NCBI GenBank assembly: GCA_005889275.1
Contig: VBFI01000043.1
Coordinates: 1-63,197 of the forward strand
Length of the DNA stretch: 63,197 nt
DNA from: Chloroflexota bacterium
GTDB lineage: Bacteria; Chloroflexota; Limnocylindria; P2-11E
Reading direction: 5' to 3'
Within the stretch, counting starts at the first letter, position 1. Each line of letters opens with the position of its first letter. The position numbers and the translations under genes are program-made. Under the pieces are notes generated by a model, which saw only the letters and a list, made by a program, of their open reading frames with translations, made no database searches and was not told where the DNA came from. This document shows positions 14,414 through 55,679 of the stretch, piece by piece.

Positions 14414-14851
14414 ATGTCCGACCTCCGCGTGCGACCGATGAACGAGCTCGACATCGAGGGCATCTGCCGCATCGACGAGAAGATCACCGGTCGCTACCGC
14501 CCCGAGGTCTGGGAGCAGCGCGTCGCGTATTACATCCGGCGCGACCCGGACTCGTCGCAAATCGCCGAGCAGGGCGGACGCGTCGTCGGCTTCATGCTCG
14601 GCGAGGTACGGGGTGGTGAGTTCGGGCTCGAGGAGCCGACCGGCTGGGTCGAGTTCTTCGGCGTCGACCCCGGTGCGCGCGAGAAAGGGATCGGGCGGCG
14701 GCTCATCGAAGCGCTGCTCGCGCACTTCCGCGCTCGCGGCGCGCACGTCGCGCGCACCATGGTCGCCGCACAGGACAAGGAGATCGCCGGGTTCATCTCG
14801 GCGATGGGCTTCAGCCCGGCGCCGCTCAGCGCGCTGGAGAAGCGCCTCTAG
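14414..14851 (+). CDS. GNAT-family N-acetyltransferase
   Basis: Acetyl-CoA binding motif (VDPGAREKGIGRRLIEAL). 145 aa. Confidence 0.8.
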   Translation: MSDLRVRPMNELDIEGICRIDEKITGRYRPEVWEQRVAYYIRRDPDSSQIAEQGGRVVGFMLGEVRGGEFGLEEPTGWVEFFGVDPGAREKGIGRRLIEALLAHFRARGAHVARTMVAAQDKEIAGFISAMGFSPAPLSALEKRL

Positions 14852-15819
14852 CCAGCGACGACCTTCGCGCGATCGAGCGCCGGACGCAGCACCTTTTCCC
14901 AGAACGCGAGGAAGCCGTCCTGGTCGGGGCCGACCTGGTGCAGACCGACGTGATCGAAGCCCGCGTCGACGCACCGTTGGATCGCCTTCAGGTACGGCTC
15001 GGGGTCCGGCCCTACTGGGACGTCCTTCGTGGCCTCCTCGAGCGTCACGTGCTCGGTCGCCGCGGCGAAATCCGCCGGGCGGCGCAGCTCCTGCGAGAGC
15101 TGGCCGCCGAGCGCGCCCGTCGGCCAGAGCTGGTGCACGAGGCGGCGCGCGGCGCTCGCCTCGCGACCCCAGCAGACCTGCACCTCGACGTATTTCGGTT
15201 TCCCCGCGCCGCCGGCCTTCTCGTACCTCGCGACCAGCTCGTTGTCGGGCGCGCTCGCGATGAGGCCATCGCCGGCCCGCGCCGCGAGCTCGGCCGCCTT
15301 CGGGCCTTTCGCGGCGACGTAGATCGGCGGCGGCGACTCGCTAGCGGTGTAGAGACGCGCGTCCTCGACGGTGAAGTAGCGCCCGCGGAAGCTCCGCTCG
15401 CCGCCGCGGAACAGCGTTCGCAGCACGTCGATCGCCTCCTCGAGCATGTCGCGCCGCGCCTCGATCGGCGGCCAGCCGCGGCCGATGACGTGCTCGTTCA
15501 GGTTCTCACCGGTGCCGAGCCCCAGGAAGAAGCGGCCCTCGAGCATGACCGACGAGGTCGCCGCGGCCTGGGCGACGATCGCCGGGTGTATGCGGATGAT
15601 CGGGCACGTGACGCCGGTGCCCACGGTGAGCTTCGTCGTCGCGGCGATCCCACCGATGACTGACCAGACGAACGGGCTCTGGCCCTGCCGGTCGATCCAC
15701 GGGTGGAAGTGATCGGAGAGCTGGACGTACGGGAAACCCGCCGCCTCGGCGTGCTGGGCGGCACGCACCATCTCGGTCGGTCCGTGCTCCTCGCTGGAGA
15801 TCCAGAACCCGACCTGCAC
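14848..15819 (-). CDS. LLM-class (luciferase-like) F420-dependent oxidoreductase, G6PDH-related subfamily
   Basis: Family-typical N-terminus begins at VQVGFWISSEEHGP...SDHFHPW, plus LGLGTGENLNEH. I prefer GTG 15819 over the tracked ATG 15903, because 15903 sits inside the palindromic operator at 15890-15904. Confidence 0.7.
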   Translation of the reverse strand: MQVGFWISSEEHGPTEMVRAAQHAEAAGFPYVQLSDHFHPWIDRQGQSPFVWSVIGGIAATTKLTVGTGVTCPIIRIHPAIVAQAAATSSVMLEGRFFLGLGTGENLNEHVIGRGWPPIEARRDMLEEAIDVLRTLFRGGERSFRGRYFTVEDARLYTASESPPPIYVAAKGPKAAELAARAGDGLIASAPDNELVARYEKAGGAGKPKYVEVQVCWGREASAARRLVHQLWPTGALGGQLSQELRRPADFAAATEHVTLEEATKDVPVGPDPEPYLKAIQRCVDAGFDHVGLHQVGPDQDGFLAFWEKVLRPALDRAKVVAG

Positions 15820-15889
15820 GCCGGGGCGCCCATGCACCACGCGTGCCGCTTTGGCACGCGGTTCGCTTCGCACGACGTGCGCTTGGGCG

Positions 15890-15904
15890 AACGGTATGAC
15901 CATT
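15890..15904. promoter_or_regulatory. Operator A: AACGGTATGACCATT (reverse: AATGGTCATACCGTT), GntR/FadR-type palindrome
   Basis: Lies in the divergent region between the LLM oxidoreductase and the BoxB-like operon, 4 nt upstream of the TAGGCT -10. Confidence 0.7.
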
Positions 15905-15908
15905 TCGT

Positions 15909-15914
15909 TAGGCT
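15909..15914 (+). promoter_or_regulatory. -10-like TAGGCT, 6 nt upstream of the BoxB-like GTG 15921 (leaderless signature)
   Basis: Same geometry. Operator A occupies the spacer just upstream. Confidence 0.5.
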
Positions 15915-15920
15915 AGACGC

Positions 15921-17228
15921 GTGAACGACGAGATCCGGGCGCTTCCGAAGGCCTATCACGAGGCGATCGAGCACTGGCAGCGCCACAACTTCCCCGACTA
16001 TCCGAAGCTCGCGGAAGAGTGGGATCGCTTCTTCCCCAAGGACGAGCCGTTCTGCCTCTGCGCGAAGATCGCGACCGACACCCCCGACGACATCGAGGTG
16101 GGGGATCATCGCGGCGAGAGGAAGGCGCTCGTCCCGAAAGAGCTCCCGCCGGAGGCGGCCCAGCACCTGCTGATGCAGATCAAGGCGCAGGCTTCCACCG
16201 AATTCGGATCGATCCAGCAGCATCAGGGCACGCTCGCGCGCGCGCAGGAGCCGCAGGATCACGCGTGGGCGCTCCGCGTTATGGCCGAGGAGCTTCGCCA
16301 CGGCTACCAGATGGTCCACCTGCTCACGAGCGCGGACTGGTCGCCGGTGACCGACACGAAGGCCGCGGACATGGTCGAGGAGATCCTCTCGATGCAGACC
16401 GGCTCGCACGTGCTCGCGGCGTTCAACCTCGAGTACGACAGCTTCCTCGACAACGTCGTCTTCGCGGCCTTCATCGATCGGGTCGGCAAGTACCAGCTCA
16501 CGATGCAGAAGATCTCCGCGTACCGGCCGTACGCCTCGAGCATGCCGCCGATGCTCCGGGAGGAGGCGTTCCACCTCGCGGCCGGGGTGATCCCGCTCCG
16601 GCGCTGGGTCGAGGCCGCCGCGCGCGGCGACGGCTACATCTCGATGGGCGACATCCAGCGCGCGATCGCGAAGTGGTTCGGCCGGGGTCTCGAGATGTTC
16701 GGAGACGAACGCGGCGGGCAGACGAACGTGAAGTTCGGCCTCAAGGACATGGCCAACCGTGAGGCGCAGGACATGTACGTAGACGAGCTCCAGCGGATGC
16801 TCGACGACCTGAACGAGCGCTACGTGCGCGCGCGCTTCCCGAACCTGCCTCGCGACGAAGCGGAGGCGCGCTTCGCGCGGGTCAGAGCGGGCGAGACCGT
16901 CGAGGGCGTGGGGCCGGACGAGCTGCTGCGGCTGCCCGACCGGCGCTTCTTCCGGCGGCGCGGGGAGCCGGCCTACCAGATGGTCGGCGCGCACGGCGAG
17001 AGCTTCACCGACGTCGAGCGGTACGTCGCGCACGTGCTCGCGTACCTGCCGGAGGCGTACCGCGCCTCCATCGACGTCAAGCACTGGGCCGATCTGCAGC
17101 GTAAGGTCGCGCGCGGCGAGATGCCGCTCAAGGAGGCGATCAGCTCGATGCCCCGCCTCGCGCGCGTCGGGGGCGCGTGCCCCTGCGCGAAGTCGGTCCG
17201 CTGGGTCATGGAGTCGACTCCCAACTAG
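15921..17228 (+). CDS. BoxB-like di-iron aryl-CoA oxygenase (benzoyl-CoA 2,3-epoxidase B family, PaaA/BoxB ferritin-like fold)
   Basis: Recalled BoxB landmarks match: EHWQ near the N-terminus, STEFGSIQQHQ, AEELRH (ExxH), IDRVGKYQL, REEAFH (ExxH). The leaderless-type GTG is 6 nt after TAGGCT. Confidence 0.7.
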   Translation: MNDEIRALPKAYHEAIEHWQRHNFPDYPKLAEEWDRFFPKDEPFCLCAKIATDTPDDIEVGDHRGERKALVPKELPPEAAQHLLMQIKAQASTEFGSIQQHQGTLARAQEPQDHAWALRVMAEELRHGYQMVHLLTSADWSPVTDTKAADMVEEILSMQTGSHVLAAFNLEYDSFLDNVVFAAFIDRVGKYQLTMQKISAYRPYASSMPPMLREEAFHLAAGVIPLRRWVEAAARGDGYISMGDIQRAIAKWFGRGLEMFGDERGGQTNVKFGLKDMANREAQDMYVDELQRMLDDLNERYVRARFPNLPRDEAEARFARVRAGETVEGVGPDELLRLPDRRFFRRRGEPAYQMVGAHGESFTDVERYVAHVLAYLPEAYRASIDVKHWADLQRKVARGEMPLKEAISSMPRLARVGGACPCAKSVRWVMESTPN

Positions 17229-17246
17229 TCCGACCGGAGGGTCAAG

Positions 17247-17969
17247 GTGACGCAGTTCAACGACCGGATCGAGCCCAAGGACTTCGCGAAGATGCCCAAG
17301 GAGTACCAGAGTCTCCTCACGCGGCTGCTCACGATCCAGGCCGACTGCGAGATCGGCGGGCCGCACATCTACGTCGACCACTGGACGCTTCGCGCGCCGA
17401 CGGTCGACGATCAGTGGCGCGTCGCGAAGATCGCCATGGAGGAGATCGACCACTGCCGCAAGTTCCTCCGCATGCTCGGGCTCCTCGAGATCGATCGATC
17501 GGACATCCTCACGCGCCCGCGCAGCAAGCGCGAGGTCGACGCGTTCAAAGAGGACATGCCGCACTGGGCCGACTTCGCCGCGTTCGGCATGCTGATCGAC
17601 AAGGTGGGTGAGTACCAGCTCGAGGAGATGACGAGCTCGTCGTACCGTCCGGTCGAGGACTACCTGCCGCAGATCCTCCGCGAGGAGAAAGGCCACATCA
17701 GCTACGGGCAGCAGCAGCTCGAGAAACTGGTGAAATCGGGCGATGAAGGGCGCGCGGCCGCCCAGGCCGCGATCGACAAGTGGTACATCGTCGGTCTCGA
17801 CATGTTCGGGACATCGGGCTCGTCCCGGACCGAGCGCTACATCGAGTGGGGTCTGAAGCGTCGTACGAACGAGGAAGCGCGCCGCCAGTACATCGCCGAG
17901 GTCGACCCACAGATCGAGGCCCTGGGTCTCGTCATCCCGGACAAGCTCCAGGGCCGGAAGTACCTCTAG
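17247..17969 (+). CDS. PaaA/PaaC-family ferritin-like di-iron protein (short paralog of the upstream gene)
   Basis: GGAGGG SD 5 nt upstream of the GTG. Both ExxH boxes are kept (MEEIDH, REEKGH), plus IDKVGEYQL. Confidence 0.7.
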   Translation: MTQFNDRIEPKDFAKMPKEYQSLLTRLLTIQADCEIGGPHIYVDHWTLRAPTVDDQWRVAKIAMEEIDHCRKFLRMLGLLEIDRSDILTRPRSKREVDAFKEDMPHWADFAAFGMLIDKVGEYQLEEMTSSSYRPVEDYLPQILREEKGHISYGQQQLEKLVKSGDEGRAAAQAAIDKWYIVGLDMFGTSGSSRTERYIEWGLKRRTNEEARRQYIAEVDPQIEALGLVIPDKLQGRKYL

Positions 17970-18007
17970 CCACGGTCCGCGAGACCTTTAACCTCGCGGT
18001 CGCGCTC

Positions 18008-19492
18008 GTGGACGCGCACCTCGAGGCGGGTCGCGGCGATCGGCCGGCGATCCGCTCCTCGGGTGAGACTCTTTCATACGCCGCGGTCGCGGGCCGGGTG
18101 AACCGGGCCGGGAACGCGCTCCGGGCGCTCGGCGTCGAGCCCGAACAGCGCGTCGCCCTCATCCTCCCTGACTCGCCGGACTTCGTCGCTGCGTTCCTCG
18201 GCGCGATCAAGGTCGGGGCCGTGCCCGTGACGCTCTCGACGCTCCTCACGCCTTTTGACCAGGCAGTCCTGATCGACGACAGTCGAGCGCGCGTCCTCGT
18301 CGTCCACGAGACGCTCGCCCCGGCGCTCGAGGCACAGCGCGCCCAGCTCCGCCAGCTGCGGCACGTGCTCGTGGCGGGCGGTGCGCGCTCGTCGTTCGCC
18401 GCCGCCGTCGCGGGCGCGTCGGACGAGCTCGAGCCCGAGCCAACGCGGCCGGACGACATGTGCTTCTGGCAGTACTCGAGCGGCACGACCGGCAGACCGA
18501 AGGCGGTCGTGCATCTGCAGCAGAGCGCGCTTGCTCCCGCGGAGCTCCATGGCCGGCACGTCGTCGCGATGCGGCCGGACGATCGCGTGTTCAGCGTCGC
18601 GAAGCTCTTCTTCTCGTACGGCCTGAACAACTCTCTGGTCATCCCCTTCCGGCACGGCGCGCTGACGATCCTCGAGTCCGCTCGTCCGGAGCCCGCGACC
18701 GTGTTCGAGACCATCGCCCGGGAGCGCCCGACCGTGTTCTACGGCGTGCCGACGAGCTACGGCGCGATGCTCGCGCACGGCGGCGAGCCGGACACGAGCT
18801 CGATCCGCGTCTACGTCTCGGCCGGTGAGGCGCTGCCGAAGCCGCTGTTCCAGCGATGGAAGGCGCGTTTCGGCCAGGAGATCCTCGACGGCATCGGCTC
18901 GACCGAGATCGGATACATCGCGATCTCGAATTTCGCGGGCCGGGCCCGGCCCGGCACGTCGGGCGAGGTCATCCCCGGGTACGAGGCGAAGGTCGTCGAC
19001 GGCGAGGGTCAGCGGCTGCCTCCCGGCGAGATCGGCGACCTGCTCGTCCGGGGGCCGTCGACCGCGCTCGGCTACTGGAACAACCGCGCCGCGACGAAGC
19101 GGACCTTCCGCGGCGAATGGGTGTTCACCGGCGATCGCTATTCCGTGGACGCCGAGGGCTACCACATGTACCAGGGGCGCAGCGACGACCTCCTGAAGGT
19201 CGGCGGGATCTGGGTATCGCCGCTCGAGGTCGAGACGGCCCTGCTCGAGCACGACGCGGTGCTCGAGTGCGCGGTGGTCGCGCGTGAGGACTCGGACGGT
19301 CTCGTCAAACCGAGCGCCTACGTGGTCCTCCGCGAGGGCGGCGCGCCGAGCCAGGGTCTCGCCGGGGAGCTCCGTGCGTTCGTGAAAGACCGCCTGGCGC
19401 CGTACAAGTACCCTCGGTGGATCGAGTTCGTACCGGAGCTGCCGAAGACGTCCACCGGGAAGATCCAGCGCTTCAAGCTGCGGGCGCGATGA
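18008..19492 (+). CDS. Aryl-CoA ligase, benzoate / 4-hydroxybenzoate-CoA ligase family (AMP-forming); start uncertain
   Basis: YSSGTTGRPKAVVH AMP-binding box and C-terminal PKTSTGKIQRFKLR. The conserved N-terminal FNLAVALVDAHLEAGRGDRPA lies upstream of the first non-overlapping canonical start (GTG 18008). See findings. Confidence 0.75.
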   Translation: MDAHLEAGRGDRPAIRSSGETLSYAAVAGRVNRAGNALRALGVEPEQRVALILPDSPDFVAAFLGAIKVGAVPVTLSTLLTPFDQAVLIDDSRARVLVVHETLAPALEAQRAQLRQLRHVLVAGGARSSFAAAVAGASDELEPEPTRPDDMCFWQYSSGTTGRPKAVVHLQQSALAPAELHGRHVVAMRPDDRVFSVAKLFFSYGLNNSLVIPFRHGALTILESARPEPATVFETIARERPTVFYGVPTSYGAMLAHGGEPDTSSIRVYVSAGEALPKPLFQRWKARFGQEILDGIGSTEIGYIAISNFAGRARPGTSGEVIPGYEAKVVDGEGQRLPPGEIGDLLVRGPSTALGYWNNRAATKRTFRGEWVFTGDRYSVDAEGYHMYQGRSDDLLKVGGIWVSPLEVETALLEHDAVLECAVVAREDSDGLVKPSAYVVLREGGAPSQGLAGELRAFVKDRLAPYKYPRWIEFVPELPKTSTGKIQRFKLRAR

Positions 19493-19956
19493 CCACGCAC
19501 CGCGTCGCGTTCACGCTGAACGGCGCAGCGCGCGCGATCGACGTTCCCGCGGACCGCCTCCTCATCGACGCGCTTCGCGACGAACTCGGCGCGACGGGTA
19601 CGAAGCTCGGATGCGGCATCGGCGTGTGCGGCGCCTGCAGCGTGCTCGTCGACGGCGAGCTCCTCTCCGCATGCCTCCTGCCGGCCATCTTCGTCGACGG
19701 GCATGCCGTCACGACCGTCGAAGGGCTCGCCGCCGATGGCGAGCTCACCGCGACGCAGGATGCCTTCATCCGCGATGGTGGTTTCCAGTGCGGCATCTGC
19801 ACGCCGGGCCAGCTCGTCGCGGCGACCGCGCTGCTCGTCGAGCACCCCCGGCCGAGTCCCGACGAGATCCGGACGTGGATGATGGGGAATCTCTGCCGGT
19901 GCACCGGCTACTACGGCATCGAGCGCGCGATCGGCCGCGCGGCGGGGATGACGTGA
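19489..19956 (+). CDS. [2Fe-2S]-binding small subunit of a molybdenum hydroxylase (CoxS/XdhC-type)
   Basis: ATGA overlap with the ligase. CGIGVCGAC and CGICTPG...CRCTGY cluster motifs. Confidence 0.9.
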   Translation: MTTHRVAFTLNGAARAIDVPADRLLIDALRDELGATGTKLGCGIGVCGACSVLVDGELLSACLLPAIFVDGHAVTTVEGLAADGELTATQDAFIRDGGFQCGICTPGQLVAATALLVEHPRPSPDEIRTWMMGNLCRCTGYYGIERAIGRAAGMT

Positions 19957-20801
19957 GCTTCGACTACCACGCGCCGCGATCGGTCGGCGAGGCTCTCGCG
20001 CTCCTCGAGCGTTATGGCGAGGACGCGCATGTCATGGCGGGCGGCACCGCGACGGTGCTCCTCATGCGGCAGGGGCTCCTCCGTCCCGGTCACGTCGTCG
20101 GCCTTCGCGCGATCGACGAGCTTCGCGGTATCTCGCGCACCGGGAGCGGCGGCCTGCGGATCGGCGCGACCGTGACACACCGGGAAGTCGAGCGCTCCGC
20201 CGAGGCGCGCGCGTACAGCTCCGCGCTCATCGAGGCTTTCGCGAGCGTCGCGACCGTGCGCATCCGCAATCAGGCGACGGTCGCCGGGAATCTCGCGCAC
20301 GCGGATCCGGCTCAGGATCCGCCGCCGATGCTCGCGGCCTTTGGCGCGACCGTGAACGTCCGGTCGCCGCGCGGCGGCCGCGCGCTGCCGGTCAGCGAGC
20401 TCGCGGTCGATCACTTCACCACGTCGCTCGCGCACGACGAGGTCATCACGGAGATCGTGCTGCCCCCGCTCGAAGCGGGCTCGCGCGGCACGTACCTGAA
20501 GTTCCTCCCGAAGACCGCCGACGACTACGCGACGGTGTCCGTCGCCGCGACCCTGCGGCTGGCAGACGACGGGACGATCGCCGAGACGCGGATCGTGCTG
20601 GGCGCGGTCGGGCCGACACCCATCCGAGCCCGTCGCGTCGAGGAGGCGCTGCGTGGGCGAACCGCTCGAGCGGTCGCGGAAGCCGCGGCGCTGGTCCGGG
20701 AAGAGGTCGACCCGATCGACGACGCCCGCGGCTCGGTGTCGTACAAACGGGAGATGGCTCGGGTCTGGACCGGACGCGCGCTGGCGCGACTCCTCCGATG
20801 A
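19953..20801 (+). CDS. FAD-binding medium subunit of a molybdenum hydroxylase (CoxM-type)
   Basis: GTGA overlap. AGGTATVLLMR FAD motif, CO-dehydrogenase flavoprotein C-terminal domain. The protein contains no cysteine. Confidence 0.85.
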   Translation: MSFDYHAPRSVGEALALLERYGEDAHVMAGGTATVLLMRQGLLRPGHVVGLRAIDELRGISRTGSGGLRIGATVTHREVERSAEARAYSSALIEAFASVATVRIRNQATVAGNLAHADPAQDPPPMLAAFGATVNVRSPRGGRALPVSELAVDHFTTSLAHDEVITEIVLPPLEAGSRGTYLKFLPKTADDYATVSVAATLRLADDGTIAETRIVLGAVGPTPIRARRVEEALRGRTARAVAEAAALVREEVDPIDDARGSVSYKREMARVWTGRALARLLR

Positions 20802-21247
20802 AGTTCACGCACACCGCCACCGTCGCCGCGCCGCGCGCGAAGGTGTGGGCCCAGGTGATGGACGTCCCCGCGGCCGCGCGGTGCGTTCCGGGCGTCGCGT
20901 CGGTTCGTGCGTCGGGCAACGGCAAGTACCAGGGGACGCTCGCGGTCCAGGTTGGGCCGGTCCGCCTCGTCCTCGACGGCGACCTCGCGATCACCGCGCG
21001 CGATGAGACGGCGGGCACGGCGTCGCTTCGCGCCGAGGCAAAGGATTCGCGCGTCGGTGGCGCCATCCACGCGACGATGAACCTCGCGCTCGCCGAAAAA
21101 GGTGGCGAGACTGAGCTCCGCATCGACAGCGACCTCGCCGTGATGGGTCGCCTGGGCGAGTTCGGGCAGCCGGTCATCAAGCGGAAGGCCGACCAGCTCA
21201 TGCGCGACTTCGCCGAGTGCCTGGCGCGCCAGGCTTCCGCCCGGTGA
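20798..21247 (+). CDS. SRPBCC / CoxG-family protein
   Basis: ATGA overlap. 149 aa with the typical CoxG layout (VWAQVMD...CVPG...GEFGQPVIKRKADQLMRDF). Confidence 0.75.
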   Translation: MKFTHTATVAAPRAKVWAQVMDVPAAARCVPGVASVRASGNGKYQGTLAVQVGPVRLVLDGDLAITARDETAGTASLRAEAKDSRVGGAIHATMNLALAEKGGETELRIDSDLAVMGRLGEFGQPVIKRKADQLMRDFAECLARQASAR

Positions 21248-23442
21248 CGAACGTCGCCGACCGGACCGCTTCCGTCCTCGGCGATCCGGAGTACCGGGTC
21301 GAGGGGCGGGACAAGGTCACCGGCGCCGCCCGGTACGCGGCGGACGTCGCGATGCCTGGCATGCTCCATGTCGCCTTCGTCGCGAGTCCGTACGCGCACG
21401 CGCGCATCGTCGCGATCGACGTGTCCGACGCGCGCGCGCTTCCCGGGGTGCGGGCGGTGATCACGGGCGAGGACACGAAGCCGGCACGGCTCGGTCGGCG
21501 GCTGCAGGACTGGCCGGTCCTCTGCTGGGACCGCGTCCTCTTCATCGGCGACCGCGTCGCCGCGATCGCGGCGGACAGCGCGGCGATCGCCGAGGACGCG
21601 GCGCGCCGCGTGCGTGTGGAGTACGAGGAGCTTCCCGCCGTCCTCGATGCGGACGCCGCGCGCGGTCCCCAGGCGCCGGTGCTCCATCCCGACGCGTCCT
21701 CGTACCGGTATTTCGGCGGCGACCGTCCCTCGATCCCGCATCCGAATTTGCAGGCATACGCGGTCCACCGCCACGGCGACGTCGATGCCGGCTTTCGGGC
21801 GGCGCATCGCGTCTACTCCCACACGTTCACGGTGCCGCGGACGCATCAGGCGTACATCGAGCCCCGCGCCGCCCTCGTTTGGCTCGACGGCGAAGTGCTG
21901 CACGTCGTCACCACCAACAAGGCGCCGTTCGCGCTGCGCCAGCAGATGGCCGCCTCGCTTGGGATCGCCGAAGCGAACATCGTGGTGGACGCCGGACACA
22001 TCGGCGGCGATTTCGGCGGGAAGGGGCTCTCGCTCGACGAGTTCGCCCTCGCCTACCTCGCGCGCGCGAGCGGCCGCCCGGTTCGTTCGGTCACCCGCTA
22101 CGCCGACGACATGCAGGCCACGAACACGCGTCACGCCGCCACGATCGCGCTGACCACTGCGGTCGACGCCGACGGTCGGATCCTCGCCCACACCTCGCGA
22201 GTCGTGTTCGACGGCGGCGCGTACGCGGCGGGAAAGCCGGTCGCGACGCTCCTGCCGGGCGACGCGATGCTCACGCTCGCCGGGTACCGGGTCCCGGCGG
22301 CCTCGGTCGAGGCGATGAGCGTGTATACGAACCAGGTGCCGGCGGGCCACTCGCGCGCGCCGGGCCAGCCGCAGAACGCGTTCGCCGCGGAGTCGCACAT
22401 CGATCTCGTCGCGCGGTCGCTCGGCATCGATCCGCTGGTCATGCGCGAGCGCAACGTGGTACGGCCGGGCGACATCGATATCACCGGCGCGCCCTGGCAT
22501 GGCACCGACGGCGCGGAGGTGCTCGCGCGACTCCGGACCGCCGCTCACTACGCCGAGGCGCGAACGACCCCGCACAGCCTCGGCGCGCCCGCCATCGGCT
22601 CCGGCGTCGCGCTCGGCGTTCGGCACGTCGGACGGGGACGCGCGTCGATGGTGCTGCGCCTCAGTCGAGGCCGCGTGGAGCTTCGCACCGGCGTGGCCGA
22701 CCAGGGGGGCGGCGCCTACACGCTCTTCCAGCGCATCGTCGCGACCGAGCTCGGGATCCCGCTCGGTCGCGTCACCGTGACGCGCGGCGCGACGGACGCG
22801 GTGCCGAACGATCCGGGCGTGGGAGGAAGTCGGGTGACGCCGGTGCAGGGCGGCGCCGCCCTGGACGCGGCCCGCAAGCTCCGGGTCAGGCTCGCCGAGC
22901 TCGGCCGCGCTCTGGCCGACGCGGGCGATCTCGAGGTGATCGGCGAGGCGTCGCAGGAGACCCACGACGCCTCGATGTACGCCTACGCGCTGCGCGTCCT
23001 CGTGGACGTGGAGACCGGCTCCACGAAGGTCGAGCACGCGACCCTCGTCGCGGACGTGGGGACGGTCATCAACCCGGTTGCCCTGCGCGGGCAGCTCGAG
23101 GGTGGCTTCGTGTTCGGCCTCGGGCAGGCGCTCATGGAGGAGCTGCGCCTCGAGGACGGCCGCGTCACGAACCCGAGCTTCGCGGATTACAAGATCCCCA
23201 CGATCGCCGATGTCCCGCCGCTTCAGGTCGAGCTCATCACGGGCGACCCCGGGCCGGGGCCCTTCGGGGCGAAGTCCGTCGGCGAGCTCGCGAATCCGGC
23301 CGTCGGCGCGGCGGTCGCGAACGCGGTCCAAGACGCCGTCGGCGTCCGCGTGTGGAGCTTGCCGATCACGGCCGAGAAGATCTGGGCGGAGCTCACCCGA
23401 CCCGACGAAGTGCGCGAGGTCGCCGGCTCGGCCGAGGATTGA
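21244..23442 (+). CDS. Molybdopterin-binding large subunit of a xanthine-dehydrogenase-family hydroxylase (CoxL-like, not CO dehydrogenase)
   Basis: GTGA overlap. RVEGRDKVTGAARYAAD N-terminus, GGDFGGKG and AGHSRAPGQPQ motifs. I saw no AYxCSFR CODH signature. Confidence 0.85.
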   Translation: MTNVADRTASVLGDPEYRVEGRDKVTGAARYAADVAMPGMLHVAFVASPYAHARIVAIDVSDARALPGVRAVITGEDTKPARLGRRLQDWPVLCWDRVLFIGDRVAAIAADSAAIAEDAARRVRVEYEELPAVLDADAARGPQAPVLHPDASSYRYFGGDRPSIPHPNLQAYAVHRHGDVDAGFRAAHRVYSHTFTVPRTHQAYIEPRAALVWLDGEVLHVVTTNKAPFALRQQMAASLGIAEANIVVDAGHIGGDFGGKGLSLDEFALAYLARASGRPVRSVTRYADDMQATNTRHAATIALTTAVDADGRILAHTSRVVFDGGAYAAGKPVATLLPGDAMLTLAGYRVPAASVEAMSVYTNQVPAGHSRAPGQPQNAFAAESHIDLVARSLGIDPLVMRERNVVRPGDIDITGAPWHGTDGAEVLARLRTAAHYAEARTTPHSLGAPAIGSGVALGVRHVGRGRASMVLRLSRGRVELRTGVADQGGGAYTLFQRIVATELGIPLGRVTVTRGATDAVPNDPGVGGSRVTPVQGGAALDAARKLRVRLAELGRALADAGDLEVIGEASQETHDASMYAYALRVLVDVETGSTKVEHATLVADVGTVINPVALRGQLEGGFVFGLGQALMEELRLEDGRVTNPSFADYKIPTIADVPPLQVELITGDPGPGPFGAKSVGELANPAVGAAVANAVQDAVGVRVWSLPITAEKIWAELTRPDEVREVAGSAED

Positions 23443-23449
23443 CCCCGGC

Positions 23450-24244
23450 ATGAGCGTCTCGTGCGATCGCGTGACCATCCGCTTCCGAGCGAGCGTGGAA
23501 GCGGTGAGCGACGTCTCGCTCGACGTCGCTCGCGGCGAGTTCGTCGCGATCGTCGGGCCGAGCGGATGCGGGAAATCGACGCTGCTCAACGCGATCGCCG
23601 ATCTCCTCGATCCGGCGATCTGCGAGGTGACCGGCCGGATCGAGATCGACGGCGCCGGTCGTCGGGAGCGGACGCGCCGCGACGCGAACCTCGGCTACGT
23701 GTTCCAGCGGGACGCCCTGCTGCCGTGGCAGACGCTCCTCGAGAACACCCAGCTCGGCCTGGCGATCCGGGGCATCGGGAAGGAGCGCCGCCTCGCGCGC
23801 GCACGTGAGCTCATCGCGATGGCCGGGCTCGCCGGGTTCGAGCACTACTACCCGCACCAGGTCTCAGGCGGGATGCGGCAGCGTGCATCGCTCGTCCGGA
23901 CGCTCGCCTACGAACCGCAGACGATCCTCATGGACGAGCCGTTCGGCGCGCTCGACGCGCAGAACCGCATGGTGCTCCAGGCGGAGCTCCTCAAGATCTG
24001 GCAGGAGACGCCGCGCACGATCCTCTTCGTCACGCACGACCTCGCCGAGGCGATCGTGCTCGCGCAGCGCGTCATCGTCATGTCGCGGCGGCCCGGGCGG
24101 GTGAAAGCGGTCCACGCGATCGACCTGCCCTACCCGCGCGACGCCTTCGCGCTCCGCGGCTCGGCGGAGTTCGCCCGGCTCGAGACCACCATCTGGCAGG
24201 CGCTTCGCGACGAGTTCCGGCTCGCGACCGAAACGAACGCGTGA
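23450..24244 (+). CDS. ABC transporter ATP-binding protein (NitT/TauT family)
   Basis: Walker A GPSGCGKST, signature VSGGMRQR, Walker B ILMDEPFGALD. Confidence 0.9.
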   Translation: MSVSCDRVTIRFRASVEAVSDVSLDVARGEFVAIVGPSGCGKSTLLNAIADLLDPAICEVTGRIEIDGAGRRERTRRDANLGYVFQRDALLPWQTLLENTQLGLAIRGIGKERRLARARELIAMAGLAGFEHYYPHQVSGGMRQRASLVRTLAYEPQTILMDEPFGALDAQNRMVLQAELLKIWQETPRTILFVTHDLAEAIVLAQRVIVMSRRPGRVKAVHAIDLPYPRDAFALRGSAEFARLETTIWQALRDEFRLATETNA

Positions 24245-25029
24245 GCCGCACCTGGTCGCTCGCCCTTCGCCGCACGGCGCTCATCGTCGCGATCTTCGTG
24301 CTGTGGGAGGCGGTGACCGGGGGGTTCGGCCTGGGGATCGTCCTCGTGAGCCCGGCGATCCTCGCACGCCCATCGAGCGCACTCGGCGAGCTGGGCCCCT
24401 ACGCGCAGTCGGGCCTGCTCTGGCGGGACCTCTCGACGACCCTCACCGAAGCGATGGTCGGGCTCGTGCTCGGCATCATCGGCGGCGCGGCGCTCGGCCT
24501 GGGTCTCGCGTACCTCCGCGGCACCTCGGAGGTCGTCGAGCCCGTGCTCGTTTCGCTCAACTCGCTGCCGAGGATCGCGGTCGCGCCGATCCTCCTGCCG
24601 CTCTTCGGGCTCGGGATCGCGTCGAAGATCGCGCTCAGCTTCTTCACGGTGTTCTTCGTCGTCTTCTTCAACACGTATCTCGGCATCCGCTCGGTCGATC
24701 CGGAGCTGGTCAAGGCGGTGCAGGTGATGGGCGGGAGCCGCGCGCACCTCGCCCGCTTCGTCGTGCTCCCGTCGGTGTTCAGCTGGATCTTCGCGGCCCT
24801 TCGGACGAGCGTGAGCTTCGCGCTCACCGGTGCGGTGGTCGGCGAGTTCGTCGGGGCCTCGGCCGGCCTCGGCTACCGGCTCAACATCGCGGCGGGCCTT
24901 CTCGATACCAAGCGCGTCTATCTCATACTCCTCATCCTCATGGTCTTCGCGGTCACGCTGGTGGAGATCGCCAAGCGGGTGGAGGCGAGACTGCTGCGCT
25001 GGCGCCCCTCCGCGACGCTCGGCACGTAG
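24241..25029 (+). CDS. ABC transporter permease (NitT/TauT family)
   Basis: GTGA overlap. Six hydrophobic segments. EAA-like loop (RSVDPELVKAVQVMGGSRAHLARFVVLP). Confidence 0.85.
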   Translation: MSRTWSLALRRTALIVAIFVLWEAVTGGFGLGIVLVSPAILARPSSALGELGPYAQSGLLWRDLSTTLTEAMVGLVLGIIGGAALGLGLAYLRGTSEVVEPVLVSLNSLPRIAVAPILLPLFGLGIASKIALSFFTVFFVVFFNTYLGIRSVDPELVKAVQVMGGSRAHLARFVVLPSVFSWIFAALRTSVSFALTGAVVGEFVGASAGLGYRLNIAAGLLDTKRVYLILLILMVFAVTLVEIAKRVEARLLRWRPSATLGT

Positions 25030-25040
25030 GGGGGAACCAC

Positions 25041-26114
25041 ATGCGACGCGCATCCGGACCGCTCCTGGGCATCGCGATGGTGCTGGCCGCGTGCGGACAG
25101 GCGGCGCCGGCGGCAAGCTCGGCGCCGTCCGCCTCGGGATCCCAGGCCGCGGCCACGCCGAAGCCGCCGGCCGACAAGGTGACGCTCACCGGCATCAACT
25201 CGACGGAGCTCAATCTGCCCACGCTCGTGGCCATCGCCAAGGGCTACTTCGCCGAGGAGAACATCGAGCTCGCGGAGTTCGTCATCGGGTCGAGCGGCAC
25301 GCTGCGGCAGGGGATGATCGCCAAGCAGTACGACTTCGGTCTCTATGCCTTCGTGCACGTCCCGATCGCGCGGCTGGCCGGTTCGCCGTTCAAGATGGTC
25401 GTGCAGGTGCACGACCAGGAGATCTTCGGCCTCATCGCGCGGACCGCCCTCAAGGATCAGGTAAAGGCCGTCAAGGACCTCAAAGGAAAGAAGATCGGCT
25501 TCACCACACCGGGCTCGGGCACGTGGGCGCTCGCGAACGTCTACCTGAGGAAGGCGGGTCTCGATCCCGACAAGGACGTCGAGCTCGTCTCGCTCGGCGG
25601 CGACAACGCCGTCTTCTATACGGCGCTGCAGTCCGGCCGCGTCGACGCGATCGCGTCGTTCGAGCCGATCGGGACGAAGGTGATCGCCGACAACGTCGGG
25701 TACTACGTCCTCGACGCCTACGCAGCCGGGACCGCGAAGGAGCAGCTCGGCTCCGAGAAGGCCGACGCGCTCGGCCTGGTCACCCGCGAGGACGTCATCG
25801 CGGCGAAGCCCGATCTCGTGAAGCGGATGGTGAACGTGCAGAAGAAAGGCCTCGACTTCATCCGCGCGAACACCCCGAGCGCGATCGCCGGTCTCATCAT
25901 GGGCAACACGCAGGCGGCGCAGCAGTTCCAGGGCTACGACACGGCGCTCGTCGCGAGGGTCATCGAGCACGTCAAGGGCGGGTTCGGCACCGGATGCGTG
26001 AGCAAGTCGGGATTCGACTCCGAGATGAAGATCGCGCTCGACTACAAGCTCGTGAGCGGCCCGATCACCTTCGAGCAGTTCGCCGACACCTCGTTCGCCG
26101 GGAGCTGCCCCTAG
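25041..26114 (+). CDS. ABC substrate-binding lipoprotein, NMT1/SsuA-like (SBP-1, divergent paralog)
   Basis: Lipobox VLAAC. DLKGKKIGFTTPGSG motif typical of NitT/TauT SBPs. Confidence 0.8.
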   Translation: MRRASGPLLGIAMVLAACGQAAPAASSAPSASGSQAAATPKPPADKVTLTGINSTELNLPTLVAIAKGYFAEENIELAEFVIGSSGTLRQGMIAKQYDFGLYAFVHVPIARLAGSPFKMVVQVHDQEIFGLIARTALKDQVKAVKDLKGKKIGFTTPGSGTWALANVYLRKAGLDPDKDVELVSLGGDNAVFYTALQSGRVDAIASFEPIGTKVIADNVGYYVLDAYAAGTAKEQLGSEKADALGLVTREDVIAAKPDLVKRMVNVQKKGLDFIRANTPSAIAGLIMGNTQAAQQFQGYDTALVARVIEHVKGGFGTGCVSKSGFDSEMKIALDYKLVSGPITFEQFADTSFAGSCP

Positions 26115-37347: not shown

Positions 37348-37362
37348 AATGGTCATACCATT
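37348..37362. promoter_or_regulatory. Operator D: AATGGTCATACCATT (perfect 6-3-6 palindrome), autoregulatory site
   Basis: Ends 9 nt upstream of the gntR GTG and directly follows a 12-bp-stem hairpin. Confidence 0.75.
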
Positions 37363-37371: not shown

Positions 37372-38133
37372 GTGTTCACTCCGATCCACCAGGCGCGCGC
37401 CTCGGGTGAGATCGTTTCCCAGATCGAGCGGGCGATCTTCGCCGAGGAGCTCTCGGCGGGCGACCGGCTCCAATCAGAGCGCGAGCTGGCCGAGCAGTTC
37501 GGCGTCTCACGCATCACCGTGCGTGACGCGCTCCGCGTCCTCGAGGCGCGCGGCCTCATCCGTGTGAAGGTCGGCGCGACCGGCGGGGCGTTCGGCGCGG
37601 ACGCGAGCACCGACCGCGTGGCCGAATCGCTCTCGACGATGATCCGACTCAAGCGCATGACCCTCTCCGAGCTCGCGGAGGCGCGGACGGTCGTCGAGGC
37701 GGCCACCGCCGCGCTCGCCGCCCAGCGCGCCAACGCCGGAGCCGTCTCGCGCCTCGCGCAGAACGCGCAGCAGGGCCGCGCGGTGATCCGCGAGAGCGTC
37801 ACCCACGCGGAGGCGAGCATGGACTTCCATGTCGAACTCGCGCGCGCGGCCGGCAACGAGGTCCTCTACGCGACGGTCGCGGCGTATCGCGAGCTGCTCG
37901 TCCCGGCGCTCCGCGATCTGCGCAACCCGAGCACGGTGAACAAGACGCAGAAGATCCACGAGGAGCTCGTCGAGGCGGTCCGCCGCCACGATGCGGAAGG
38001 GGCGCGCGAGCTGATGGTGGCGCATCTCGAGGACTTCGAGAAGCGTCTGCGCAGGCGGCTCGTGGAACGGGAAGAGGAGCGCCTTCCGACCGGCAACGTG
38101 CATCGACTCGTCCGTCCCGGAGGAAAACGCTGA
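37372..38133 (+). CDS. GntR-family transcriptional regulator, FadR subfamily (FCD ligand domain)
   Basis: wHTH LQSERELAEQFGVSRITVRDALRVLEARGLI, followed by an all-helical FCD-type domain (HVELARAAGNEVL...H). Confidence 0.9.
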   Translation: MFTPIHQARASGEIVSQIERAIFAEELSAGDRLQSERELAEQFGVSRITVRDALRVLEARGLIRVKVGATGGAFGADASTDRVAESLSTMIRLKRMTLSELAEARTVVEAATAALAAQRANAGAVSRLAQNAQQGRAVIRESVTHAEASMDFHVELARAAGNEVLYATVAAYRELLVPALRDLRNPSTVNKTQKIHEELVEAVRRHDAEGARELMVAHLEDFEKRLRRRLVEREEERLPTGNVHRLVRPGGKR

Positions 38134-40012: not shown

Positions 40013-40480
40013 ATGAGCACGTCTGCGCGGCGGAGCCGCGAGATTGAGCAGGATCGGTATGCCGCGGCGAAGCAGATTCTCTCGCGGATCGCGGCGATCG
40101 CCGAGCATCCTGGTTCACGGACGACGCGGCTGATCCAGGCCTCACGAGAGTTCAGCGTTTCGCTCCTCCACGACGCGCAGCAGGACCTCGCGATGGCCGC
40201 CGGCCGCTCGGCCGAGGGCCCCGACAAGTTCGCGGCACTGGGGATCCCGGTCGCGACGCAGCCTGAGTTCAAGGCTCCGGCCGTCGACGGCAGTCTCGCG
40301 ATGCTCTGGTGCAGGGTCGTCGAGGAGCGCCCGACCGGCGATCACATCCTCTTCGTCGGCGAGATCCAGGGCGCCGTCACCAACGACCGGAAGTTCGACG
40401 CGCTCCTTCGATATCGGCGGCGCTACCTGCGCATGGGCCACTGGACCTCCGAGGAAGCTCCCGAGGGATACCCGACGTAG
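40013..40480 (+). CDS. Flavin-reductase-like domain protein, N-terminal half aberrant (possible remnant)
   Basis: The C-terminal 100 aa match flavin reductase domain landmarks (FSVSLL..DQ..LA..., PDKF, GDHILFVGEI, LLYRRRY). The first ~45 aa do not. Confidence 0.5.
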   Translation: MSTSARRSREIEQDRYAAAKQILSRIAAIAEHPGSRTTRLIQASREFSVSLLHDAQQDLAMAAGRSAEGPDKFAALGIPVATQPEFKAPAVDGSLAMLWCRVVEERPTGDHILFVGEIQGAVTNDRKFDALLRYRRRYLRMGHWTSEEAPEGYPT

Positions 40481-44031: not shown

Positions 44032-44046
44032 AATGGTCTTACCATT
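44032..44046. promoter_or_regulatory. Operator E: AATGGTCTTACCATT (perfect palindrome)
   Basis: Lies 34 nt upstream of the SBP-4 ATG, at the head of the SBP4-UbiD3-CoA-transferase-fni operon. Confidence 0.75.
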
Positions 44047-46742: not shown

Positions 46743-46752
46743 CCGCGCGGTA

Positions 46753-55349: not shown

Positions 55350-55679
55350 GTGGCAGTCGCAACCGCACCCCAGCCCAAAGGGAAGCTCAAGCTCAGGCCG
55401 CTTGGCTCCCGCGTCGTGATCAAGGCCCTCGAGCGCGAGGAAGTCACGAAGAGCGGGATCGTCCTGCCGGACACCGCGAAGGAGAAGCCCCAGGAGGGCA
55501 AGATCCTGGCGGTCGGTCCCGGCGACCGGCACCCGGACACCGGCGAGCGCATCCCGGTGGAGCTCAAGGAGGGCGATCGCGTCCTCTTCCAGAAGTACGC
55601 GGGCACCGAATTCAAGCTCGACGACGAGGACCTTCTCATCTTGAGTGAGAAAGACGTCCTCGCGATCGTGCAGAACTAG
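55350..55679 (+). CDS. groES: Co-chaperonin GroES
   Basis: [11 protein letters not shown]...[34 protein letters not shown]. Confidence 0.95.

Follow-up and report, generated by a model that had tools for sequence, protein, structure and literature searches.

A PaaA-like di-iron oxygenase, an aryl-CoA ligase and an XDH-family molybdenum (Mo) hydroxylase form a real, conserved gene association in the window analyzed here, a stretch of 63,197 nt from a Chloroflexota genome. This pairing recurs in many relatives yet fits no described pathway of aromatic degradation, and our literature searches found no description of the combination. We propose, with a probability of roughly 0.55, that these genes belong to a GntR-controlled operon of ten genes, which is built of separable modules and opens an aromatic-acid island of ~33 kb. 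Positions 15921-26114 would then be a single catabolic operon at the start of an accessory island of the phthalate/benzoate type, the genome being that of a soil Candidatus Limnocylindria bacterium. The operon would comprise three modules, namely a BoxB-like protein (G1), a cassette of a minimal PaaA-like protein (G2), the ligase and the Mo hydroxylase (S, M, CoxG-like and L), and an ABC importer (Table 1).

Organization of the operon

Profile searches and a check of the sequence recovered the seven genes between positions 15921 and 23442 with the families, overlaps and motifs given in the first-pass annotation. Stop and start codons overlap at four junctions (ATGA at 19489, GTGA at 19953, ATGA at 20798 and GTGA at 21244), and G1, which starts with GTG, is separated from G2 by 18 nt containing GGAGG. 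The start of the ligase gene is uncertain: gene callers give the GTG at 18008, and the N-terminus typical of the family is encoded from ~17981. The end of the operon had to be moved from the seventh gene, as the importer genes continue it past 23442 on the same strand to a tenth gene ending at 26114. A terminator scan found no terminator-like site ahead of them. On the upstream side, the gene of an LLM-class oxidoreductase sits between the GNAT gene and G1; it adjoins G1 in several relatives and stands between G1 and G2 in locus L090.

Table 1. Features of the operon and of the associated island in the window.
Feature	Position	Strand	Evidence and remarks
GNAT acetyltransferase	14414-14851	+	Pfam Acetyltransf_1; usual upstream neighbour of G1 in relatives
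F420-dependent LLM-class oxidoreductase	14848-15903	-	TIGR03557, 434 bits (above cut-off of 210); divergent from G1
Palindromic operator, 15 nt, AACGGTATGACCATT	15890-15904		Ends 16 nt before GTG of G1; first base 31 nt upstream
G1, BoxB-like di-iron protein, 435 aa	15921-17228	+	PF05138; BoxB model 59 bits (cut-off 499)
G2, minimal PaaA-like di-iron oxygenase, 240 aa	17247-17969	+	PF05138, 104 bits; PaaA model 104 bits (cut-off 280)
Aryl-CoA ligase, benzoate-CoA ligase family	18008-19492	+	TIGR02262, 616.6 bits (above cut-off of 375)
Mo-hydroxylase small subunit (S), two [2Fe-2S] clusters	19489-19956	+	Fer2, Fer2_2; 8 Cys; ATGA overlap with ligase
Mo-hydroxylase FAD subunit (M), 282 aa	19953-20801	+	FAD_binding_5, CO_deh_flav_C; 0 Cys, no [4Fe-4S] insertion
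CoxG-like SRPBCC protein (G)	20798-21247	+	PF06240, 62 bits
Mo-hydroxylase large (molybdopterin) subunit (L), 732 aa	21244-23442	+	Ald_Xan_dh_C, MoCoBD_1, MoCoBD_2
NitT/TauT-type ABC importer, whole	23450-26114	+	ABC_tran, BPD_transp_1, NMT1
ABC ATPase	23450-24244	+	ABC_tran
ABC permease	24241-25029	+	BPD_transp_1; GTGA overlap with ATPase gene
ABC SBP	25041-26114	+	NMT1; SsuA family, 82 bits
Second operator copy	37348-37362		Perfect consensus match
GntR/FCD regulator	37372-38133	+	Just after second operator copy
Flavin-reductase-like protein, gntR-UbiD2 operon	40013-40480	+	PF01613, 78 bits
Third operator copy	44032-44046		Perfect consensus match
Phthaloyl-CoA decarboxylase (Pcd)	45117-46742	+	800 bits to Pcd structures 8PMK and 8OZ5
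Fused family-III CoA transferase	46753-48987	+	CoA_transf_3, 448 bits

Conservation of the cassette

Among the 32 informative metagenome loci anchored on G2, 28 carried the Mo subunits, 29 the ligase and 25 both, and either or both were linked to G2 in all 32. A second, diverged copy of the cassette with the gene order unchanged and 52-75% identity was found on another contig (C29) of the same genome. The coupling of a di-iron oxygenase, a ligase and a Mo hydroxylase claimed in the first-pass annotation is thus confirmed; the conserved unit is G2, the ligase and S-M-CoxG-L, with G2 as its core. At least four gene orders were seen for the cassette: G1-G2-lig-S-M-G-L, G1-G2-S-M-G-L, G2-lig'-S'-M'-G'-L' and G1-S-M-G-L-G2-lig. 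CoxG orthologues (~77% identity) also lie directly 3' of G1 in 12 of 57 G1 loci, where the Mo enzyme is absent, and the CoxG orthologue of L090 is placed after G2-ligase.

The shared operator and the missing partners

Perfect matches to the operator consensus AAyGGTmwkACCrTT occur only at 15890, 37348 and 44032 in the whole genome of 2.78 Mb, all on the present contig, and precede G1, gntR and the operon of a bona fide Pcd, respectively. Many Limnocylindria loci keep an operator site ~43 nt before G1. The distance from G1 to GGDEF-groESL is 3.2 kb in the close relative L017 versus ~36 kb here. Pcd and the CoA transferase are a predicted source of benzoyl-CoA within the same regulon and, in our reading, the operon is the aryl-CoA oxidation module of the ~33-kb island and would serve a form of aerobic, CoA-dependent breakdown of aromatics, for which substrate and chemistry are predictions.

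No orthologue of BoxA, BoxC, PaaB or PaaE, and no B/C subunit of class-I benzoyl-CoA reductase, was found in the whole genome; these absences are provisional because the assembly is 91% complete and in 235 contigs. The lack of BoxC noted earlier for the window therefore extends to the genome-wide search. The lack of a reductase in the window holds for the BoxA and PaaE types and fails for the flavin-reductase-like gene of the island. Under the operator we found this gene, and neither a BoxA/PaaE-type reductase nor a ring-opening gene. Its product is a predicted alternative electron donor, and in locus L190 a homologue comes directly after L in the type-B cassette. Candidates for a crotonase and an ALDH are on contig C217, from which the operator is absent.

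Two di-iron proteins with separate distributions

Alignment to BoxB (3PER: E120, E150, H153, D211, E240 and H243) indicated that G1 keeps all six di-iron ligands, and its E94, E124, H127, D186, E215 and H218 are invariant columns in the family alignment. The full set of six is likewise present in G2 as aligned to PaaA (3PVR). AEELRH and REEAFH are found in G1, and MEEIDH and REEKGH in G2. In agreement with the first-pass annotation, neither paralogue has lost its ligands. BoxB was the best full-length match of the AF2 model of G1 (TM 0.52).

G1 is a lineage-conserved gene beside GNAT, independent of the rest of the operon, and is not a dedicated partner of G2. Of 76 genome loci, from Limnocylindria as well as Eisenbacteria, 72 have a GNAT homologue ahead of G1. 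G2 follows G1 in 12 of 57 loci and is absent from the other 45, including every Eisenbacteria locus, and 30 of the 57 contain no part of the cassette. In a phylum sample, 22 other genomes of the same class had no G2 orthologue and only weak G1-like matches (26-39% identity). G1 probably acts alone, as an aryl-CoA oxygenase of the benzoyl-CoA type.

G2-like proteins without G1 were found in other classes of Chloroflexota, next to genes for PaaX, two crotonases, ALDH, NuoE/NuoF-like proteins, a CCG FeS protein and EtfAB. These neighbourhoods suggest that G2 may be a Paa/Box-type oxygenase with a redox partner that differs among lineages. In a single locus (L138), the G2-like gene adjoins homologues of Pcd and the CoA transferase.

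The molybdenum hydroxylase

For the FAD subunit, the best model was the beta subunit of glyceraldehyde (aldehyde) dehydrogenase (214 bits), and the model of the beta subunit of 4-hydroxybenzoyl-CoA reductase (4-HBCR) gave 98 bits against a cut-off of 405. The best models of the large subunit all scored below their cut-offs (4-HBCR alpha, 441 bits with a cut-off of 995; PucD, 385 bits; CODH, 284 bits), PaoC and MOP-type aldehyde oxidoreductases ranking below 4-HBCR alpha. Its top PDB matches were 6-hydroxypseudooxynicotine DH (277 bits) and 4-HBCR (259 bits). The large subunit bears GGDFGGK and AGHSRAPGQPQ, and the motif check found neither an AYxCSFR nor an AYRGAGR loop in it. In agreement with the first-pass annotation, we rejected both a CO dehydrogenase, given the missing AYxCSFR loop and the low CODH score, and a canonical 4-HBCR. 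4-HBCR is a CoA-ester enzyme, in which the FAD subunit carries a [4Fe-4S] cluster that serves reverse electron flow; the FAD subunit here lacks this cluster because it has no cysteine. No characterised hydroxylase with which the Mo enzyme clusters firmly emerged from the profile models and PDB matches. As the large subunit is about equidistant from CoA-ester enzymes (4-HBCR) and from those acting on free N-heterocycles or CO, the proposed action of the Mo enzyme on a CoA ester is putative.

Proposed pathway and alternatives

We propose that an aromatic carboxylate would be imported and then thioesterified, the co-regulated Pcd being an alternative supplier of benzoyl-CoA. G2 would use O2 to epoxidise or hydroxylate the ring of the CoA ester, and the Mo enzyme, using water as furoyl-CoA dehydrogenase does, would oxidise either this CoA-bound intermediate or the following one. 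The Hmf pathway, in which a Mo hydroxylase acts on a heteroaryl-CoA with a ligase and a UbiD decarboxylase nearby, is a precedent (PMC3223595). The two electrons needed by G2 might come from the FeS/FAD chain of the Mo enzyme or from the flavin-reductase-like protein, and later ring processing might be performed by enzymes whose genes lie elsewhere, for example in the crotonase/ALDH cluster of C217.

It is possible, though rather unlikely, that the Mo enzyme precedes the ligase in the pathway and has a free compound as its substrate, acting as an aryl-aldehyde oxidoreductase or a hydroxylase of free (hetero)aromatic acids. The neighbouring BFD-like ThDP decarboxylase would produce the aldehyde, the link to G2 would exist at the pathway level only (the aldehyde yields the acid and then the aryl-CoA, which undergoes ring oxygenation), and electrons would pass through CoxG to the respiratory chain, not to G2. 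The cassette has BFD-like ThDP enzymes (benzoylformate decarboxylase, 176 bits) as neighbours both in the window and in loci of types B and C, an arrangement that fits an aldehyde-oxidase role. The best model of the FAD subunit, the S-M-G-L of L143 without ligase or G2, and the NAD-type ALDH that replaces the Limnocylindria Mo enzyme in the G2-like clusters of other classes point in the same direction. On the other hand, the large subunit is best matched by 4-HBCR alpha, four loci with G2-S-M-G-L (L153, L157, L177 and L202) retain G2 and the Mo enzyme but drop the connecting ligase step, and L090, with G2-ligase-CoxG, lacks S, M and L yet still has the ThDP enzyme. The 4-HBCR alpha match would also suit an oxygen-tolerant reductive dehydroxylase that converts hydroxybenzoyl-CoA to benzoyl-CoA before epoxidation by G1 or G2, as would the second-best model of the ligase, HbdA (3-hydroxybenzoate-CoA ligase; 414 bits, below the cut-off of 1000). 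The lower identities of the ligase and Mo subunits (51-64%) than of G2 (~75%) to the copies on C29 fit substrate-specific peripheral enzymes with a common oxygenase. We nevertheless give this reading very little probability, as none of the three subunits comes near its equivalog cut-off, the cluster for reverse electron flow is missing, and donors would be needed for two enzymes with no BoxA-/PaaE-type reductase encoded.

The proposal of separable modules also has to be weighed against the earlier suggestion that G1 and G2 are subunits of one enzyme, a heteromeric epoxidase resembling the PaaA/PaaC pair with both metal sites kept. The two genes are adjacent under a common operator-controlled promoter, both products have full ligand sets, and G1 adjoins the cassette in 14 of the 23 G2-anchored loci with enough upstream sequence. 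Nevertheless, the two share 28% identity, G1 resembling the catalytic BoxB and G2 the catalytic PaaA, and S-M-G-L stands between them in type-C loci, while the cassette of L190 is away from G1. With the independent distributions described above, the suggestion was not borne out and we regard such a pair as improbable. Some functional cooperation between G1 and G2 may still be conceivable, because the operator is common to both and the cassette adjoins G1 in most of the genomes bearing it.

Gene content and extent of the operon

The operon encodes, in this order, a BoxB-like di-iron protein of 435 aa (G1), a PaaA-like di-iron protein of 240 aa (G2), a ligase (lig) and the [2Fe-2S], FAD, CoxG-like and molybdopterin proteins of a Mo hydroxylase (S, M, G and L, respectively; see the table below). 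The Pfam and TIGR family matches confirmed the seven genes as described in the first-pass annotation, and the four ATGA/GTGA overlaps and the motifs quoted there were all found in the sequence, of which the G+C content is ~70%. By the source names of its closest public proteins, the window belongs to a Candidatus Limnocylindria (Chloroflexota) genome from soil. The unit does not end with the seventh gene as had been assumed. The gene calls on near-identical metagenome contigs place the start of an ABC ATPase gene 7 bases past the Mo subunit gene, followed through a GTGA overlap by a permease gene and then by the gene of an NMT1/SsuA-type binding protein (SBP). Thus, we regard the operon as a unit of ten genes, beyond which a convergent gene for a ThDP enzyme is located. 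No promoter-like site was detected in the scanned stretch, and the sole terminator-like site, weak evidence in such a scan, was found at position 25595 within the last (SBP) gene.

The ligase scored well above the subfamily cut-off of TIGR02262 (375 bits) and covered model positions 1-507 of 508. Its conserved N-terminus (FNLAVALVD...) is encoded after the stop codon of G2 but ahead of the first canonical start, GTG at 18008 (region 17966-18010), which suggests a non-canonical or coupled translation start. Five orthologous loci (L166, L162, L065, L016 and L013) have no ATG, GTG or TTG in the corresponding stretch, while others have a GTG ~11 codons upstream.

Coordinates of the operon, its putative operator and the associated features on the contig
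Feature	Position	Match or remark
Small GNAT gene	14414-14851	
F420-dependent LLM oxidoreductase	14848-15903 (minus)	TIGR03557, 434 bits
GNAT to G1	14414-17228	first part of the conserved GNAT-G1/groES-groEL order
Palindrome	15890	first base 31 nt before the G1 start
G1	15921-17228	PF05138; weak BoxB match
G2	17247-17969	PF05138; best match PaaA
Benzoate-CoA-ligase-family ligase	end 19492	TIGR02262, 616.6 bits
2x[2Fe-2S] subunit, FAD subunit, CoxG-like SRPBCC protein, molybdopterin subunit	19489-23442	
ABC importer binding protein (SBP)	end 26114	last gene of the unit
Palindrome, one mismatch	35030	
Palindrome	37348	before gntR
Flavin-reductase-like gene	40013-40480	PF01613; in the gntR operon
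Palindrome	44032	before the SBP-Pcd-CoA-transferase operon
UbiD-family gene (Pcd orthologue)	45117-46742	8PMK and 8OZ5
Pcd orthologue and fused family-III CoA transferase	45117-48987	transferase of 744 aa
groES-groEL	55350-57323	second part of the conserved order

Two di-iron proteins with complete ligand sets

G1 scored 59 bits against the BoxB model TIGR03225, being below the equivalog cut-off of 499, and its six di-iron ligands all align to E120, E150, H153, D211, E240 and H243 of BoxB (3PER). The ligand columns were invariant among the distant members in the family alignment, and the best full-length fold match of the AF2 model of G1 (pLDDT 72) was BoxB. G2 scored 104 bits against the PaaA model TIGR02156 (equivalog cut-off of 280; 30 bits for G1) and 45 bits against TIGR03225. 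Residues 7-232 of G2 align to chain A of PaaA (3PVR), with the ligands of the E...ExxH...D...ExxH pattern all kept. Altogether, six of the six ligands are present in each protein. A PaaC-like structural role was rejected for both G1 and G2, because neither has lost a ligand.

The G1 family is small: a search of 1.8 billion proteins gave 422 representatives at E<=1e-3. G2 matches more than 1,400 protein clusters (90% identity) at E<=1e-20 in the public data. The source names among the 120 best matches of G2 were all automatic (e.g., PaaA, PaaI and 'phenylacetic acid catabolic protein').

G2-like proteins of other Chloroflexota classes share 43-58% identity with G2, and their genes are clustered with those for PaaX, two crotonases, an aldehyde dehydrogenase (ALDH), NuoE-like and NuoF-like proteins, a CCG/4Fe-4S membrane protein, EtfAB and a hydrolase of the FAH family. 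In one locus (L138), the G2-like gene adjoins the homologues of the phthaloyl-CoA decarboxylase (Pcd) and CoA transferase described below. These partners place G2 as a probable oxygenase of a Paa/Box-style CoA-thioester pathway. The redox module beside G2 varies by lineage, and the adjacent redox proteins in Limnocylindria are S and M of the Mo enzyme. In four of the loci from other classes (L135, L136, L140 and L141), the recurrent set comprises ALDH, PaaX, two crotonases, a NuoE-like 2Fe-2S protein, a NuoF-like protein, a CCG/4Fe-4S membrane protein of 680 aa, the G2-like protein, EtfB, EtfA, an MFS transporter and FAH, and resembles a pathway of the Paa/Box kind supplied with electrons by an unusual module.

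A molybdenum hydroxylase distant from characterised enzymes

Judged from its sequence, the Mo enzyme is an S/M/L hydroxylase of the xanthine-oxidase family with every feature present: the Fer, FAD, hammerhead and MoCoBD_1/2 Pfam domains were all detected above the cut-offs, the small subunit has 8 cysteines, and L bears GAKSVGE, with the C-terminal catalytic Glu, at residue 675. We rejected a CO dehydrogenase, since L lacks the VAYRCSFR loop, in agreement with the first-pass annotation, and scored 284 bits against the CoxL model (TIGR02416) with a cut-off of 991. The top curated model for L was the alpha subunit of 4-hydroxybenzoyl-CoA reductase (4-HBCR). However, the scores against the HcrABC models (TIGR03194/03195/03193) were 441 of 995 (alpha), 98 of 405 (beta) and 155 of 258 (gamma), and the FAD subunit (282 aa) is indeed free of cysteine and lacks the [4Fe-4S] insertion of 4-HBCR. 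The Mo enzyme is thus not regarded as a canonical 4-HBCR. Among the structures, L matched 6-hydroxypseudooxynicotine dehydrogenase (277 bits), 4-HBCR (259 bits), CoxL (248 bits) and quinoline oxidoreductase (247 bits), and neither the curated models nor PDB gave a close match to any characterised member. A tblastn search of plasmids with L returned generic matches of the XDH family at <=37% identity and no informative annotation.

Conserved linkage of the oxygenase, ligase and molybdenum enzyme genes

We searched for the loci anchored by G2 and obtained 57 from metagenomes, 32 of which had enough flanking sequence. In these 32 loci, the Mo subunits were found in 28, the ligase in 29 and both in 25, and every locus had at least one of them. 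Four gene orders were recognized. Besides G1-G2-lig-S-M-G-L as in the window, we found G1-G2-S-M-G-L, in which the ligase has been lost and S begins 17 nt past G2, and G1-S-M-G-L-G2-lig. The fourth is the diverged order G2-lig'-S'-M'-G'-L', sometimes with a UbiD decarboxylase and an ABC importer ahead. A second, diverged cassette resides in the same genome on another contig (C29:1-4630, minus strand), the contig ending inside G2' and inside L'. Its identity to the copy in the window is 75% for G2, 52% for the ligase, 64% for S, 53% for M, 52% for CoxG and 62% for L. As the set was kept through rearrangement and an old duplication, these data argue for a functional link among the di-iron oxygenase, the ligase and the Mo enzyme. 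No described system combining a di-iron oxygenase, a Mo hydroxylase and a ligase was found in the literature.

The set is separable to some extent. One locus (L143) possesses S-M-G-L with neither G2 nor the ligase, and another (L090) possesses G2, the ligase and CoxG with none of S, M and L. The CoxG-like gene stays beside G1 or G2 where the Mo enzyme is absent, implying that its product does not serve the Mo enzyme alone.

The linkage of G1 is of another kind. We mapped the window proteins onto 80 genome loci with G1 orthologues (59-90% identity). The small GNAT gene was found upstream of G1 in 72 of 76 loci, both in Limnocylindria and in Candidatus Eisenbacteria. Of 57 loci, 12 have G2 on the downstream side, 15 have Mo subunits there, 12 have a CoxG-like gene alone and 30 have none of the three. 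In a close relative (L017, of which G1 is 87% identical), the order is GNAT, LLM, G1, CoxG-like, (VOC), DUF1684, GGDEF, groES and groEL, and the distance from G1 to GGDEF is 3.2 kb versus ~36 kb in the window. Furthermore, when 400 genomes of the phylum were sampled, 22 of the same class gave matches to G2, all of them weak and G1-like (26-39% identity), and a G2 orthologue was present in none. Thus, G1 is conserved across the lineage and sits at one edge of a variable island of ~33 kb. The coupling of di-iron and Mo genes first noticed in the window is real and conserved as a set, albeit within other limits than the seven genes, and the idea of G1 and G2 as two subunits was not supported by the survey, given that the constant neighbour of G1 is GNAT rather than G2.

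A putative shared operator and a predicted source of benzoyl-CoA

The genes in the far part of the island were annotated with Pfam and NCBIfam. They encode three UbiD decarboxylases, a fused family-III CoA transferase, a PhtC-like class-II aldolase, a flavin-reductase-like protein, a GntR/FCD regulator and two BFD-like ThDP enzymes, each with a binding protein. No exact-sequence match was found for the GntR and M23 proteins of the window. One of the UbiD proteins matched Pcd (8PMK and 8OZ5) with 800 bits (E 1e-239, residues 32-541), whereas the next UbiD structure scored 148 bits, and it is by this match a clear orthologue of Pcd. Downstream of the Pcd orthologue comes the fused CoA transferase, and the host is an aerobe with an operon for cytochrome oxidase. 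In anaerobic phthalate degraders, o-phthalate is processed by succinyl-CoA:phthalate CoA transferase and a UbiD-type Pcd (PMC13040137). Thus, the island is predicted to be able to make benzoyl-CoA by the same route.

A perfect 15-nt palindrome, AAyGGTmwkACCrTT, occurs at three sites in the 2.78-Mb assembly, all of which are on this contig, and precedes G1, gntR and the SBP-Pcd-CoA-transferase operon; a fourth copy carries one mismatch. The same palindrome was found ahead of G1 in many loci of Limnocylindria and is probably the operator of the GntR/FCD regulator. This putative operator being shared, the G1-led operon appears to be co-regulated with the production of benzoyl-CoA.

Absent partners and candidate substitutes

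In this genome, which is 91% complete, the best matches to BoxA and BoxC were 25 bits (cut-off of 459) and 69 bits (cut-off of 712), respectively, that to PaaE was an FNR-like fragment of 93 bits on another contig (C5), and neither PaaB nor the B/C subunits of class-I benzoyl-CoA reductase were found. Only three PF05138 genes are present, namely G1, G2 and the C29 copy. The former two are complete with full ligands, the last is cut at the contig end, and no ligand-free gene of the PaaC type was found among them. An AOR-family gene on contig C154 was considered as a class-II benzoyl-CoA reductase of the BamB type but set aside, since it is a single gene with no Bam-like neighbours.

The claim that no partner exists thus holds for the orthologues of BoxA, PaaE and BoxC, but is qualified by two sets of genes. 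The PF01613 gene in the operator-controlled gntR operon is a candidate electron donor, and a homologue lies directly 3' of the L gene of the diverged cassette in locus L190. As for ring processing, the best matches in the same genome to the genes flanking G2-like proteins in other classes (50-61% identical) are on contig C217, where no operator was found. The region C217:33132-41602 has ALDH, crotonase and CoA-transferase-like genes, all candidates for ring processing, beside two aryl-CoA ligase paralogues, one of which is 53% identical to the ligase in the window.

Relation to known pathways and possible chemistry

We read the operon, with its parts in conserved linkage, its operator shared with a co-regulated source of benzoyl-CoA and the classical partner enzymes absent, as a variant of aerobic, CoA-dependent catabolism of aromatics that is abundant among the uncultured Chloroflexota of soil and would use an oxygenase and a Mo hydroxylase. 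It shares with the aerobic box pathway (BoxAB, BoxC and BoxD; BoxB 3PER and 3PF7) a ligase of the benzoate-CoA ligase family and the strategy of CoA thioesters in an aerobe, and G1 resembles BoxB in architecture as well as in ligands and fold, its low score notwithstanding. On the other hand, BoxA and BoxC were not found, and the genome has instead a PaaA-like second oxygenase along with the Mo hydroxylase. The likeness to PaaABCDE (PaaAC 3PVR and 3PW1) is in the catalytic PaaA and in the PaaX, crotonase and ALDH genes adjoining the G2-like genes of other Chloroflexota. However, G2 is ~70 residues shorter than the 311-aa PaaA chain, PaaB, PaaE and the ligand-free PaaC type are missing, and the redox proteins adjacent to G2 are the Mo-hydroxylase subunits. 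HcrABC (1RM6 and 1SB3) is the closest curated model for L, with the same three-subunit Mo/FeS/FAD architecture and an adjacent aryl-CoA ligase, but differs from the enzyme here in the scores and FAD subunit described above, in the CoxG gene between M and L and in the aerobic host. The anaerobic o-phthalate pathway resembles the island in the Pcd orthologue and the family-III CoA transferase. In its known hosts benzoyl-CoA passes to benzoyl-CoA reductase (PMC13040137), while the two di-iron proteins are the only candidate takers of benzoyl-CoA found here.

In the chemistry that we propose, an imported aromatic acid would be thioesterified, or benzoyl-CoA would be supplied by Pcd; G2 and, independently, G1 would oxygenate the ring of the CoA ester; and the Mo enzyme would use water to oxidise either the same CoA-bound intermediate or the following one, by analogy with furoyl-CoA dehydrogenase. 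The latter, HmfABC, is Mo-dependent and clustered with the ligase HmfD and the UbiD/UbiX decarboxylase HmfFG (PMC3223595). The main rival puts the Mo enzyme before the ligase as an oxidoreductase of an aryl aldehyde or a free acid, fed by the ThDP decarboxylase. For the oxidation of a CoA ester, Hmf provides the precedent of Mo-dependent hydroxylation of a ring borne on a CoA thioester (PMC3223595), and both systems cluster UbiD, a ligase and a three-subunit Mo enzyme of the XDH family. Hmf nevertheless has neither a di-iron oxygenase nor CoxG, and its thioesterase/hydratase HmfE has no counterpart in the operon. [quoted passage not shown]

A bolder extension of the CoA-ester chemistry, which we consider improbable, is that the cassette works as a self-contained, NAD(P)H-independent machine for ring oxidation, the electrons of the Mo enzyme re-reducing the di-iron site. 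With O2, G2 would epoxidise benzoyl-CoA or a closely related compound, and the oxepin tautomer of the epoxide would be an O-heterocyclic acyl-CoA. The Mo enzyme would then hydroxylate it next to the ring oxygen with water, as furoyl-CoA dehydrogenase acts on 2-furoyl-CoA, giving a lactone that opens by hydrolysis, and the two electrons freed at Mo would return to the di-iron site via [2Fe-2S] and FAD, for which the CoxG-like protein would provide a docking adaptor. One Mo enzyme would thereby replace BoxA, BoxC and BoxD, which would explain why the cassette encodes neither a reductase nor a ring hydrolase nor an aldehyde dehydrogenase. With this cassette, the idea that a Mo hydroxylase can serve a di-iron oxygenase as its reductase becomes open to testing.

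Candidatus Limnocylindria are uncultured bacteria that are abundant in soil. If our reading is correct, they would degrade acids of the benzoate and phthalate types via CoA thioesters with a pair of an oxygenase and a Mo hydroxylase, and such degraders would be missed by the current markers, BoxABC, PaaABCDE and benzoyl-CoA reductase. It would also show how aerobes outside Proteobacteria dispose of the benzoyl-CoA from the so-called anaerobic Pcd route.

Further observations on the G1 loci

G1 is ~60% identical between the phyla of Limnocylindria and Candidatus Eisenbacteria, and GNAT-G1 with groES-groEL shortly downstream is common to both (L070-L089, L017 and L019). The cysteine motifs FCLCAK and GGACPCAK (residues 45, 47, 420 and 422) are invariant in 21 orthologues of 60-93% identity, including those of Eisenbacteria. 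These four cysteines may form a metal site, although the C-terminus carrying the conserved CPC motif has a pLDDT of ~31-35 in the AF2 model. The F420-dependent LLM oxidoreductase, located between GNAT and G1 in the window, is flanked by G1 and G2 in L090, where it is on the coding strand, and is thus a recurrent companion. G1 was also found (62-88% identity) on four contigs assigned to the MAGs of Udaeobacter, Bathyarchaeia, Saccharimonadales and Saccharimonadaceae (L011, L020, L043 and L080). These contigs are probably mis-binned, and in L020, L043 and L080 G1 is preceded by GNAT as in Limnocylindria.
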